Virus record (IMG/VR): IMGVR_UViG_2875713109_000001
Length of the DNA stretch: 64,000 nucleotides
Strand: one strand, 5' to 3'
From: a virus
Taxonomy: Duplodnaviria; Heunggongvirae; Uroviricota; Caudoviricetes
The position numbers were made by a program, and so were the translations under genes. The first letter of the stretch is position 1. Every line of letters starts with the position of its first letter. A model generated the notes under the pieces. That model did no database searches. It saw only the letters and a program-made list of their open reading frames with translations, and was not told the origin of the DNA. Below are positions 6,121 through 46,745 of this stretch, piece after piece.

Positions 6121-6142
6121 AACAAGTGACTAGTGTTAAATT
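6121..6142 (+). promoter_or_regulatory. late-promoter-like motif AACAAGTGACT-N5-TAAATT upstream of prt
   Basis: Motif recurs upstream of lyz, gene 23-like, R and lydA (see findings). Confidence 0.3.
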
Positions 6143-6185
6143 TCCGTTCAAACACGATGCGAATTATTCTAATTAAGGTGCAATC

Positions 6186-7895
6186 TTGGCAGACAATAAA
6201 ATCACGCTATCCTCGGTCAGGAAGGCGCTGGCGGGGGTTTTTAAAGACAACGGAGAACGGGACAACATCCTCCTGTCCGCGCTGGCTGTGCACGGCGGAA
6301 GTGGGTATTTGTTTTCTCGCGCAGGGGCACCGGTACAACTGTCCGGCTTCTTAGGCGGCAAACCGGGCGATAGTGGCATGGCTGGCGATGGGCTGGTGGA
6401 CGGAAGTCGCTTTATCTTTGATGAAGTTCAACTGCCAGAAGATCGCTTGCAACGCTATCCGCTACTCGAAGAGATGGCGGTTTACAGCACGATCGCCACC
6501 GCGCTGAACATCCATATTACGCACGCGCTCTCTTTCGATAAGAAGACCGGACAAACCTTCTCTATCGTGCCGGTACATAACGGAAACGATAGTGACTATG
6601 ACGCCGCGCAGGCGTTGTGTGGCGAGCTGATGAACGACATCGGGCGAACCATCAACAAAGAGGTCGCCGGGTGGGCATTTATCATGTCTGTATTTGGGGT
6701 GGCTTATGTCAGGCCATACACCAAAGAAGGCATAGGGATCACATCTTTTGAGTGCTCCTATTACACCCTTCCGAGCTTCATCAAAGAGTTCGAGGTCAGC
6801 GGCAACCTGGCGGGATTTAGCGGCGATTATCTGAAGGACGCGTCAGGGAAAATGGTTTTCGCCGATCCGTGGGACATTATCCCTATGAAAATCCCCTACT
6901 GGCGGCCTAAGTCAAACCTTATGCCTGTGCACACTGGCCATAAGGCTTTCAGCCTGCTGGATAATCCGGAAGAGCGCACGCCGATTGAAACCCAGAATTA
7001 CGGGACCAGCTTGCTCGAATACGCCTACGAGCCGTACATGAATCTGCGTTCTGCGATCCGCTCGCTGAAAGCAACGCGTTTTAATGCGTCGAAAATTGAC
7101 CGAATCATCGGCCTGGCGATGAATAGTCTGGATCCGGTTAAAGCAGCCGATTATTCGCGCACCATTACTCAGACGCTTAAACGAGCAGCTGACCTGATGG
7201 AAAGACGCGCACGTGGCGCGAATAACATGCCTACGGTGACCAATACCCTGCTGCCTATTATGGGCGACGGCAAGGGACAGATGACTATTGATACTCAGAC
7301 CATCCAGGCTGACATCAACGGCATTGAAGACATTCTCACCTATATGCGCCAGCTGGCGGCAGCACTTGGCCTCGATTACACCCTCCTGGGGTGGGCAGAT
7401 CAAATGTCCGGCGGGCTTGGCGAAGGTGGATTCCTGCGCACGGCAATTCAGGCCGCCATGCGCGCCTCATGGATCCAGCAGGGCGTAGAAGAGTTCATTC
7501 AGCGGGCTATCGATATTCATCTTGCTTTCAAGTACGGCAAGGTATACCCGGAAGGTGATCGCCCGTACAAAATCGAATTCCACTCCGTTAATACCGCTCT
7601 GCAACAAGAGCACAACGATAACCGCGACTCGCAGGCGAACTACGCCACCATCGTTACGCAAATCCTCGATGCCGTCAGCAATAACAGCGTCCTCGCCAAT
7701 TCCGATGCATTCAAACGTTACCTGTTCAGCGATGTGCTGGAGATTGACGAAAAAATCTCTGAAGCACTGGTGAACGAACTGAAAGCGAAAAGCGAGGACG
7801 ACGATCACCTGATGGATTCCATCATCAAAACACCGCCACAGGAACTGGCGCAAATCCTTGAATCGGTCTTTAAAGAGGGAAACGATAATGACTGA
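6186..7895 (+). CDS. putative portal protein (P1 Prt-like by synteny and size)
   Basis: 569-aa ORF; TTG start preceded by SD AAGGTG; lies between darB and protease-like gene. Confidence 0.5.
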
Positions 7896-8907
7896 TGTTT
7901 TGAAAACGGTCACTGACCGCTTTTGTCTCTATAGTAATGCTCGAAAAGGTCGCCAGAACGGGCGACAGTATGTATTAAGCGCGGTAAAGGCCATGCTTGA
8001 AAGCAAGGAAACTCAGGAAGGTTTACGCCTTGGAGAGCTTTTCGGCTATTACGGTCACGGTCGCCGCCAGCTAACCGGTAAACTGGAGGTGCCTGAAACC
8101 AGCGTGATCATGGTGGAAGGTCGCCCGGTCGTTATCGACAATGTTCCAGCTTGCCGCACAGTGGCTATATCCGTTGACGACAACGGCATCGTTACCCATA
8201 CACAGGAAATTCTTAACACAGAGCCGGGTAAAATTGTCGCCGCGATGATCGAAAGCCGTGCTGGTGGCTGGAGCTGGGCCACTGGTGGGCGCGAGTCCGG
8301 GAAAATCGCTGTAACCACCAGCTTCCATGGTGTGGATTATGTGACGACGCCGAACTATATCAGTCTGGATCATCCTGCCAGCGCCGGAATGTTTGAAAGC
8401 GCGGATTCTAAATCTCTACTGGCAGAGTCCCTGGCTGCGCATGGGTACTCCGACGAGTCAGTGCAGGCCGTTATATCCCATTACGGCAAAATGGCTGAAC
8501 TGGAAATGATGGTGGAGGCGACAGAGCGTACGGCAGAACTGGAAACCGCACTACTCGAAAGCCAGGGCCGCCACCTCGAAGCAATGGCCAAGATCGCAGA
8601 TGCTGAAGCGCGAATCGCTTTGCTGGAGGAAACAGCGGGTATCCGCGACGATGTGCTGGCAGCAATGCAAGACGAACTGGATAACCTCCCGATCTTCGTC
8701 TCCGCCGCCCAAAAAGACGCATTCCGCCTCAAAGAACCTGGTGATGCAAAAATCGTTGCCACACTTTTCGAATCTCTGATCAAAGTTGGAGCACGCAACT
8801 TGCCTGTCACCAAGAAAATTAAGGAGGTTCCGCAAGCGGCTAACATCCAGGCACCGCGTGAGACAAGCATCATCACGTTTAATAATTCAATCAATCCGTT
8901 CAAATAA
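7888..8907 (+). CDS. putative head protease/scaffold (P1 Pro-like by synteny)
   Basis: ATG at 7888 with SD GAGGGA, overlaps prt stop (ATGA); coiled-coil C-terminal half. Confidence 0.5.
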
Positions 8908-8918
8908 CCACCAAAAAT

Positions 8919-44893: not shown

Positions 44894-44953
44894 AACTTTC
44901 CCTGTTATGCGCCCCGCACGGGGGCGCTATGTTAAACGGAGAACTTCCCGTGA

Positions 44954-46681
44954 TTACTCAGAGTCACCGGCATCAATCATGTTACCGGTCAGGAAGTTAA
45001 TTCCGCCATTTTTGGCCATAGTCAGAGTTACACGCGTGAAGTAGTCAGCGCCGTTACGTGGGTGCATATCGTTGATAGCCGAACCCCACAGAGTGGTTCG
45101 GTTAACTAGTGCCGGGGTGGTCGGATGCTGGAATGGGACAGCCGGGACTGCATCACCAGTTACGAAGCCCGCTTTGCCCGGATTTTCATCACGGACGTAG
45201 CACAGCACATCCATTGGGCTGAACTGGATACCGTCGGCGGTCAGGTTCGTACAAATACCTTCTGGTACTTCGAACACTTTGACGTTGCCGAACAGATTGC
45301 CAATGTAGTGGACGTATGGGGTCTGGATGTAATCTTCTGCTGGCTGGAAGAAATCCTTCGGCAATTGTTTGAAGAAAGATGCCGCATCAGCACCGGCATA
45401 CATCCCCATCGCACCAGAAGATTTAATACGCTCAATAATACCGCGATATACCGTCTGGAATTTGCCTCGAATGATGGTTGCCCACACATCAAAGGACTGG
45501 TTAGCTGGCAGTGCAATATCAAAGGAGTCGGTCGCAAGAGTTCGCCAAATCATGATACGAAGACGAAGCATATCTTGCTCATGGGACAGGTATTCCTTCA
45601 GGGTGCGGAACTGTAGGGAGCCAAGATCCAGACCAAATTCACGCTGTGCTTCATACGCCGCCTGTACCGTGTGCTCAGCCGCGATGACGAACTGGTTTGG
45701 GAACAGGGTGTAACTCTTCATTTCGTGGTTGATAAGTGGGATCAGCTCAGGAGCTGCTTCTATATTGATCTCCGCCTCAATGGCGATCTCTGTACCTTTA
45801 TCTGGCGCTTTGGAGAACGACAGGACAATCTGACCAACGTTGTAATTCAAAGAGCAAGTAACAGTGATTTGTTCGCCTGCTTTGTTATTGAATGTGTGAA
45901 GCAGAGTGCCGGAGCCGTTATCAACAACAGACTTAATACGGTTAACGTAGATGTTTGTGCGACCTTTGCGAATCGGGACATTCTGACCTTCGACATCTTC
46001 CATCTTGAAGGTTGCAGTTTTGCTGGTGCCGTCGGAGCTTGCAACCAGCACATAGCGGCGGCGCAACTGGCTGTACACGCCAACGGATTGCATGTCCAGA
46101 ACATCACCAATAGCATAAGAGCCAAAAGAAGAACCCGCTACGTTAAAGATTTCATAGATTTCGGACTTGTCACGCGTAACCGGAATGAATGTACACGCAT
46201 CAGCGGTAGCTGCCCCCAACTGAACAGGCAGGATCATCGCCAGGAATAAAGGCAGACGCATAACCCCGTCAGAAACACTCATCATCTCTGCCGCGACTGA
46301 TTCCAGCATCGCTTTATTGGTGGCATCCATGCTATTGCGGGTGGACTCAATCAGGCAGTTTTCCAGCGTCTGGTGGCAGGAGGCCAGAATTTCCGGACGT
46401 GGCATAGATTTATGTGTTGCGGCGTAGTCAGCCAGTGCACTTGCCCACGCTGTAGCGATTTGAGCGGTGGCATTATCAGAGATACCCGCAAAAATTGGGT
46501 CTTTACGTGCAGCTTCAAGGATAGATGCGGCACGCGCGGCATCATCTTTAATGAATTGGTTATCAGTACCGAACTGCGCAGTGCTTGCCCAGCCAAGCAC
46601 AGCTTTAGAGCGTTTTGCGATATCTGCAATACGATTCTGGTATTCGCGTAAGTTACTCAATTTACTCTTCCTTAAACACAA
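44954..46681 (-). CDS. putative major capsid protein (P1 gp23-like by size and synteny)
   Basis: 575-aa frame opens at TTG 46681; alternative TTG at ~46660 after SD AGGAAGAG. Confidence 0.5.
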   Translation of the reverse strand: MCLRKSKLSNLREYQNRIADIAKRSKAVLGWASTAQFGTDNQFIKDDAARAASILEAARKDPIFAGISDNATAQIATAWASALADYAATHKSMPRPEILASCHQTLENCLIESTRNSMDATNKAMLESVAAEMMSVSDGVMRLPLFLAMILPVQLGAATADACTFIPVTRDKSEIYEIFNVAGSSFGSYAIGDVLDMQSVGVYSQLRRRYVLVASSDGTSKTATFKMEDVEGQNVPIRKGRTNIYVNRIKSVVDNGSGTLLHTFNNKAGEQITVTCSLNYNVGQIVLSFSKAPDKGTEIAIEAEINIEAAPELIPLINHEMKSYTLFPNQFVIAAEHTVQAAYEAQREFGLDLGSLQFRTLKEYLSHEQDMLRLRIMIWRTLATDSFDIALPANQSFDVWATIIRGKFQTVYRGIIERIKSSGAMGMYAGADAASFFKQLPKDFFQPAEDYIQTPYVHYIGNLFGNVKVFEVPEGICTNLTADGIQFSPMDVLCYVRDENPGKAGFVTGDAVPAVPFQHPTTPALVNRTTLWGSAINDMHPRNGADYFTRVTLTMAKNGGINFLTGNMIDAGDSE

Positions 46682-46716
46682 GGCACTTGTGTGAATCCCT
46701 TTTCGGAAGAGATTTT

Positions 46717-46745
46717 ATTGAAAGTCACTTGTTGACTTTCTCGCG
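46717..46745 (-). promoter_or_regulatory. late-promoter-like motif (rc AACAAGTGACT-N5-TAAAAT) upstream of capsid gene
   Basis: Best match to the recurring motif. Confidence 0.35.

Follow-up and report, generated by a model that had tools for sequence, protein, structure and literature searches.

Late promoters in the DNA of a P1/P7-like plasmid prophage, a different promoter box in phage D6, and a possible link between promoter and ribosome-binding site

Results

The element and its copies

We analysed a stretch of 64,000 nucleotides (hereafter the window) from the virus record IMGVR_UViG_2875713109_000001, in which a short promoter-like element recurs upstream of genes for virion assembly and cell lysis. 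The whole window was collinear with phage P1 nt 11128-75905 at 96–99% identity (blastn against AF234172.1), and the alignment was broken by replaced blocks at 11411-12946, 20564-24055, 34658-36035, 46830-49206 and 57930-59019. A megablast search with window positions 5000-12000 against a phage collection returned 19 records, all of them P1-type (P1, P7, SJ46, RCS47 and others), at 97–98% identity. Judged by these alignments, the window comes from a P1/P7-like plasmid prophage and spans darB to gene 24.

The initial annotation of the window had placed a box, followed 5 bp later by a -10-like hexamer, upstream of prt, lyz, lydA, R and the capsid gene, and had described these as activator-dependent late promoters without a -35 region. 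All five copies were present in the sequence (Table 1). Each is a 22-nt element that consists of 3 nt, a 9-bp box, a 4-nt spacer and a hexamer; the P1 nomenclature thus has a 9-bp box and a 4-bp spacer in place of the longer box and 5-bp gap. The boxes of the five sites fit the 9-bp inverted repeat AAGT(G/T)ACTT with 0–1 deviations, and the fixed 4-bp spacer was followed by a TANNNT hexamer at all six sites that we list, including one, LPsit, that had been overlooked. The five promoters first named were therefore right, but the true number in the span is six. Three of the five coordinate ranges were exact or within 1–4 nt, while two were shifted by 5–12 nt: the range 19903-19928 cuts the first 5 nt off the LPdar element, and 46717-46745 retains just the first base of the LP23 hexamer.

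Table 1. Promoter elements, candidate elements, helices and neighbouring genes in the window, with P1 homologues (AF234172.1 unless stated) and fold statistics from hexamer to start codon
Feature	Positions	Strand	Sequence and parts	Genes served or nearby; start codon	Homologue and its annotation	Fold z; shuffles folding as well
LPpro, late promoter	6121-6142	+	AAC AAGTGACTA gtgt TAAATT; AAC 6121-6123, -22 box AAGTGACTA 6124-6132, spacer 6133-6136, -10 TAAATT 6137-6142	prt-pro; prt TTG at 6186	P1 17251-17269, 'late promoter LPpro'	+0.5; 137/200
LPlyz, late promoter	9843-9864	-	AAC AAGTGATTT gcat TATCCT; box AAGTGATTT 9853-9861, -10 TATCCT 9843-9848	lyz-lydD-lydE; lyz ATG at 9756	P1 20969-20987, 'late promoter LPlyz'	+0.4; 122/200
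LPdar, late promoter	19912-19933	-	GAG AAGTTACTT tgca TACCAT; box AAGTTACTT 19922-19930, -10 TACCAT 19912-19917	lydA-lydB-hdf-darA-ddrA-ddrB operon; lydA GTG at 19883	P1 31212-31230, 'late promoter LPdar'	-1.95; 6/200
LPs (= Ps), late promoter	25979-26000	-	GAC AAGTTACTT ctct TACAAT; box AAGTTACTT 25989-25997, -10 TACAAT 25979-25984	tail-fibre operon R-S-U; R ATG at 25948	P1 38318-38336, 'late promoter LPs'	+0.3; 111/200
LPsit, late promoter	34638-34659	-	CAC AAATGACAA ctcg TAGAAT; variant box AAATGACAA 34648-34656, -10 TAGAAT 34638-34643	pmgC-tub-pmgB-sit-pmgA-bplA-16 operon; pmgC ATG at 34606, 31 nt downstream	P1 46608-46626, 'late promoter LPsit'; annotated at the same place in P7 (AF503408.1)	-5.8; 0/200
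LP23, late promoter	46712-46733	-	AAC AAGTGACTT tcaa TAAAAT; box AAGTGACTT 46722-46730, -10 TAAAAT 46712-46717	major capsid gene 23 and downstream genes; gene 23 TTG at 46660	P1 58825-58843, 'predicted late promoter LP23'	-2.2; 4/200
D6-type motif	20271-20291	-	AAATCACAAAGT aca TACCGT	38 nt upstream of lydC ATG (20232)	P1 31571-31591 (-)
P1-type candidate, sub-threshold	51683-51704	-	AAC AAAGGACTT catt GATAAT	19 nt upstream of ppfA ATG (51664)	JK004 23653-23674, GAC AAATGACCT ggcg GAAAAT; pCFSAN058588 47701-47722, GAC ATATGACTT gtca GAAAAT
LPsit hairpin	34613-34647	-	5' arm CTCGTAGAATC, includes -10 hexamer; minimum free energy -19.1 kcal/mol	pmgC
LPdar hairpin	19890-19909	-	CCUCCUG-n6-UAGGAGG; 3' arm contains the Shine-Dalgarno AGGAGG	lydA
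LP23 helix	46665-46711	-	CUCUUCC (7 nt directly past -10) pairs with GGAAGAG (Shine-Dalgarno); small inner hairpin enclosed	gene 23
GC-rich hairpin	26001-26020	-	ccccgtccgcagggcgggg	between gene 16 and R
454-aa open reading frame	11548-12912	+
Tail-fibre gene S, single 1503-aa open reading frame	21078-25589	-
Tail-fibre assembly gene	20668-21102
106-aa open reading frame	20235-20555

We scanned the window with a composite pattern of box and spaced hexamer (RASAAGTKAYT-N5-TANNNT, at most one mismatch). It matched at exactly five sites, namely LPpro, LPlyz, LPdar, LPs and LP23. Dinucleotide shuffles gave an expectation of 0.28 ± 0.60, and none of 100 shuffles attained five. Because the 8-nt core alone was only about twofold enriched (15 occurrences against 7.3 expected), the non-random unit is the composite of box and properly spaced hexamer. 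Motif discovery in the intergenic regions, which had been suggested as a check, was uninformative by itself: in a crude, unbiased count of 9-mers with at most one mismatch over 28 intergenic gaps, ACAAGTGAC came joint first, in 8 gaps, but shuffled gap sets equalled that count (6–8 gaps). All five composite sites were intergenic, in gaps that total 7.6% of the window, and all faced the adjacent gene, with 28–86 nt from hexamer to start codon; the first genes of morphogenesis and lysis operons are thus served, as had been claimed. The lack of a -35 region also stood up, since the best match to TTGACA at 16–19 bp spacing was 1–3 of 6 positions, and no site had an extended -10 (TGn).

Identity with the late promoters of P1

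The homologous positions in the P1 record are annotated as late promoters, each with a 9-bp '-22 region' and a 'minus_10_signal'. The remaining late promoters in that record are LPmat, LP26, LPpmgL, LPhot and LPpac, and the total of 11 agrees with the number in PMC10695390. The window copies and the P1 promoters have in common the 9-bp inverted repeat at -22, the 4-bp spacer, the -10 hexamer and the lack of a -35, as well as the downstream genes and the genomic positions, at 96–99% nucleotide identity. They differ in minor alleles only; for example, the spacer of LPs reads CTCT in the window but ATCT in P1. We concluded with near certainty that the recurring element marks late promoters of a P1/P7-type phage, namely LPpro, LPlyz, LPdar, LPs, LP23 and LPsit. 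The feature is already known: it is annotated to the base in the GenBank records of P1 and P7 and belongs to textbook P1 biology.

Conservation in diverged relatives

Homologues of Lpa, the phage protein that P1 late promoters need, were found in the phage collection in Cronobacter phage JK004 (67% identity) and phage D6 (31%), among others. The P1-type element, with its box, spacing and hexamer, was kept in JK004 and in the Salmonella plasmid pCFSAN058588, where it precedes the orthologous gene 23, R, pacA, lyz, pmgC and prt in both, and gene 26 in JK004 only; the lydA sites of the two were weaker. Across 21 sites from four genomes, A at -27 was present in 21 of 21 and C at -26 in 20 of 21, a conservation like that of the 9-bp box itself, and the T, A and T of the hexamer were invariant (21/21). 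By this conservation the functional element may be 11–12 bp long instead of 9, a small refinement that the 11-nt box of the initial annotation had already implied. At the LP23 locus, a footprint that begins about 9 nt before the element and runs through the start codon was invariant or had single-base differences in more than 80 P1-like loci, and the upstream (parS) side was variable.

LPsit and weaker candidates

The LPsit box reads AAATGACAA in the window versus AAATGACTA in P1 and P7. It differs from the LP23 box AAGTGACTT at three positions and from the annotated P1 LPsit box at one. Homology to P1 stops at 34658, which is precisely the upstream edge of LPsit and the point where a sim-type module (P1) and an upf50-type module (P7 and the window) part. 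The module upstream of LPsit in the window is P7-type (upf50.0/upf50.5, with DUF5384 and TraT-like open reading frames) and not sim, and the LPsit allele therefore differs from that of P1 in its box and in having CAC for AAC. No sigma-70-type promoter was called around LPsit (34300-35000).

One further candidate, below threshold, lies upstream of ppfA. Its orthologues in JK004 and pCFSAN058588 match the motif better than the window site does, and the P1 record has no late-promoter annotation there. Going by these orthologues, the ppfA element is a possible twelfth late promoter. Two other candidates were rejected: one upstream of upfC (52817-52838), which has a degraded box in P1 and none in either JK004 or the Salmonella plasmid, and one inside lydA (19600-19621), which is weak and in coding sequence.

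A different box in phage D6

A weight-matrix scan showed P1-type sites to be essentially absent from phage D6 (MF356679.1). Instead, D6 carries AAATCACA-NN-CT, followed by 3 nt and a hexamer, at 12 places, including 25241, 27747, 31531, 38135, 45511, 54144, 67413, 71033 and 72120 on the minus strand and 19215 on the plus strand. These sites all precede genes of operons that are late in P1, among them prt, ddrB, lydA, R, pmgB, gene 23, gene 7, gene 26, mat and darB. The D6-type pattern matched 12 times in D6, once in P1, once in the window at the homologous place, and not at all in JK004 or the Salmonella plasmid.

In D6 and D6-like plasmid prophages, as in P1, a box thus stands just upstream of a -10 with no -35, before orthologous late operons, and the activators are of one protein family, since Pfam PF25716 holds both P1 Lpa and D6 Lpa. 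Unlike P1, D6 has the other box and a 3-nt spacer. On this comparison, activator and box appear to have changed together in D6, and because the diverged activator pairs with a different box, the phage protein would be what sets box specificity. We found no paper on the D6 promoters in the accessible literature. The D6 box amounts to a natural specificity swap that could be used to learn how Lpa-family activators read DNA.

The sole D6-type motif in the window, like its homologue, the sole one in P1, lies upstream of lydC, a gene with a predicted early promoter (PMC9025707); by a rough estimate, about 0.14 such motifs are expected by chance per genome. LydC has 34% identity to D6 LydA and 29–30% to P1 LydA (P1 record, PMC9025707). 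By these identities LydC is no closer to D6 LydA than to P1 LydA.

Hairpins between promoter and ribosome-binding site

We folded the sequence from hexamer to start codon of each promoter and compared it with 200 shuffles (Table 1). Three promoters, LPsit, LPdar and LP23, were structured. At LPsit, the 3' arm GATTCTACGAG (then G) covers three of the four bases of the pmgC Shine-Dalgarno GAGG. Comparison of the window, P1, JK004 and the Salmonella plasmid gave 13 consensus pairs and two compensatory double changes, one of which takes in the third hexamer base (G-C to A-U), although this covariation rests on about 3–4 independent lineages. No intrinsic terminator was called at the LPsit hairpin. 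The 5' arm at LPdar lies 3–9 nt past the -10 hexamer and straddles the inferred transcription start, and its helix has no counterpart in either JK004 or the Salmonella plasmid. At LP23, both of these relatives have an equivalent helix of different sequence, (U/C)CGUCCU...AGGACAA, with weak covariation. Searches for further lineages gave almost only P1-group relatives: scans of genome and viral contigs by capsid alignment found capsids at least 93% identical, and a blastn search of plasmids with the LPsit region, set for distant matches, found DNA at least 95% identical.

At all three promoters the 5' arms lie upstream of, or straddle, the inferred start sites. By computation, the ribosome-binding site is easier to open in RNA that begins at the inferred late start, with a cost lower by 12.4 kcal/mol for LPsit, 6.5 for LPdar and 1.0 for LP23. 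The structured promoters follow the co-oriented upf50.0 (sim in P1), lydC and parB (par operon), which are not annotated as served by a late promoter. Of the unstructured ones, LPpro and LPlyz have divergent neighbours, and LPs follows a late gene. For a set-wide comparison, 45 control gene starts were each assigned a pseudo start site. An opening-cost rise of at least 5 kcal/mol in read-through RNA relative to late RNA occurred at 3 of 11 P1-type promoters versus 4 of 45 controls, which was not significant. We therefore dropped pairing with the Shine-Dalgarno as a general property of late promoters and narrowed the claim to the three promoters.

A separate GC-rich hairpin without a T-run adjoins the upstream edge of LPs.

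Other features of the window

Two of the replaced blocks change gene content relative to P1. The IS1/isaB region of P1 is replaced by a 454-aa open reading frame that combines an N-terminal helix-turn-helix (ArsR/MarR-like) with a HipA_C kinase-like domain and may be a cargo gene for a toxin or for defence. Positions 20564-24055 have no homology to the P1 region of cin and the invertible C-segment, and no cin open reading frame. Gene S is there a single open reading frame, followed by one tail-fibre assembly gene and then a 106-aa open reading frame of no assigned role. The host-range inversion switch may be absent from this phage.

Discussion

The late promoters of P1 were described in about 1989–1992. 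The motif common to the tail-fibre and dar operons was reportedly first described by Guidolin et al. in 1989; Lehnherr et al., in 1991 and 1992, are said to have identified gene 10 (lpa) as the trans-activator and to have found, by mutagenesis of Ps, that both box and -10 are needed. For this prophage, our analysis establishes that the motif exists and is non-random, where its copies lie, that they have no -35, that they are homologous in position to annotated P1/P7 promoters and that the element is conserved in diverged relatives.

The dependence on Lpa and SspA would follow by analogy from the literature on P1. There, late-gene transcription starts from promoters that need the phage protein Lpa (PMC8198154), and a conserved inverted repeat of 9 bp, described as the site that Lpa binds, is common to the 11 Lpa-dependent late promoters (PMC10695390). 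P1 late genes need E. coli SspA for their activation (PMC7515715, citing Hansen et al. 2003), and late promoters drive the expression of lyz/lydD and lydA/lydB (PMC9025707). Together with the P1 annotation of the homologous positions, this literature supports the proposal that the elements are activator-dependent.

The mechanism that we propose is the one known from P1. The element would comprise the imperfect inverted repeat AAGT(G/T)ACTT, 9 bp long and with its centre some 22 bp upstream of where transcription starts, an 'AC' two bases upstream of the repeat, the 4-bp spacer and a sigma-70-type -10 (TANNNT), with no -35, and host sigma-70 RNA polymerase alone would be unable to use it. On prophage induction, the C1-repressed lpa, which lies outside the window, would make the activator Lpa. 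Lpa and the host SspA, which is associated with RNA polymerase, would then bring about initiation about 7–8 nt downstream of the hexamer, a distance that we deduce from the '-22' nomenclature of the annotation. Lpa would read the box either directly or within the polymerase complex. Whether Lpa contacts DNA or only RNA polymerase is a point on which sources disagree (PMC8198154, PMC10695390), and it is the least settled step of the mechanism. As the outcome, the portal/protease, lysis, dar, tail-fibre, tail/baseplate and capsid/sheath operons would be switched on.

Several points weigh against this reading. Ten further copies of the 8-nt core in the window lack a hexamer at the right distance; the box by itself is therefore no diagnostic feature. 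When the window was scored with a weight matrix built from P1 late-promoter sites, the five sites first named ranked top at 23–29 bits, and LPsit was also recovered but at only 15 bits. Position 8 of its box is A, versus T in all canonical P1 boxes; the JK004 orthologue shares the A. The start sites and the dependence on Lpa and SspA are carried over by analogy from P1 to this element. Finally, a tblastn search found no copy of lpa within the window; its locus in P1 (89991-90443) lies beyond the corresponding segment, and the presence of lpa in this genome is assumed from synteny.

Three other explanations were weighed. Chance similarity among AT-rich intergenic sequences with -10-like hexamers would account for the 9-mer count, which shuffled gap sets equal, and for the merely twofold enrichment of the core. 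It does not account for the composite, for the intergenic position and correct orientation of all copies at places orthologous to annotated promoters, or for a motif kept in JK004 and the Salmonella plasmid, whose flanks have diverged; the shuffle test and this conservation refute chance recurrence, to which we give practically no credence. Much the same may be said of the idea that the copies are functionless remnants of duplicated or recombined DNA modules. A mosaic boundary does fall at a promoter, where P1-type and P7-type homology breaks exactly at the upstream edge of LPsit. However, likeness between copies ends at the 22-nt element, spacers and flanks being unrelated with no homology seen between them, and conservation is specific to positions, such as the A at -27 and the T, A and T of the hexamer; remnants are accordingly hardly conceivable.

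A slightly better case, still a very improbable one, can be made for the box as an operator of C1 or another prophage repressor on ordinary weak sigma-70 promoters. The box is near-palindromic, as are many operators, and a larger palindrome extends over the -10 at LPsit. The C1 operators of P1, however, are annotated elsewhere and are different sites, and the literature has positive control by Lpa. Moreover, because they have neither a -35 nor an extended -10, the sites should be inactive unaided. The LPsit palindrome varies in arm spacing by lineage (13-nt versus 8-nt loop) and keeps one pair as G-U in an orthologue; because of this varying loop length and the G-U pair, it fits RNA pairing better than a protein site. 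Activator-dependent late promoters of the P1 type thus remain our explanation of the six copies.

The value of identifying them lies in the correct annotation of P1-like plasmid prophages, hundreds of which circulate among Enterobacteriaceae, some with resistance genes.

The hairpins at LPsit, LPdar and LP23 suggest, tentatively, a second role for promoter DNA, which we think possible but rather doubtful. That is, the -10 or the following 7–9 nt might double as the 5' arm of a helix that sequesters the ribosome-binding site of the first late gene. Read-through RNA from upf50.0, lydC or the par operon would contain the entire hairpin and so stay untranslated, whereas Lpa-started RNA would be without the 5' arm and be translated. 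We regard this as a lead, not a finding; no description of such control in P1 was met in the accessible literature, which did not cover the P1 genome paper. If it is true, structural and lysis genes would be kept silent despite transcription reading in from maintenance genes, and synthesis of tail, lysis/dar and capsid proteins would be insulated from prophage transcription.

The late promoters of P2/P4 are activated by Ogr/Delta. Those of phage Mu are activated by C (PMC4461284). Like P1, Mu and P2/P4 have a phage-encoded activator, and their promoters, which serve morphogenesis and lysis operons, combine a -35 that is weak or missing with an element of dyad symmetry upstream of the -10. Unlike P1, their activator proteins are unrelated and their sites lie at other positions, and P1 also requires host SspA. 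For the hairpins, the counterpart is phage T4, in which genes e, soc, 49 and I-TevI have a late promoter within the DNA for the 5' strand of a hairpin that sequesters the ribosome-binding site (PMC3014915). The geometry matches that of LPsit, LPdar and LP23; read-through transcripts would be silent and late ones translatable, and P1 would then have its own version of the T4 lysozyme/soc/gene 49 mechanism. The two phages are unrelated, however: T4 late promoters depend on gp55/gp33, whereas those of P1 depend on Lpa and sigma-70, and in P1 the mechanism is a proposal for three of six promoters only.

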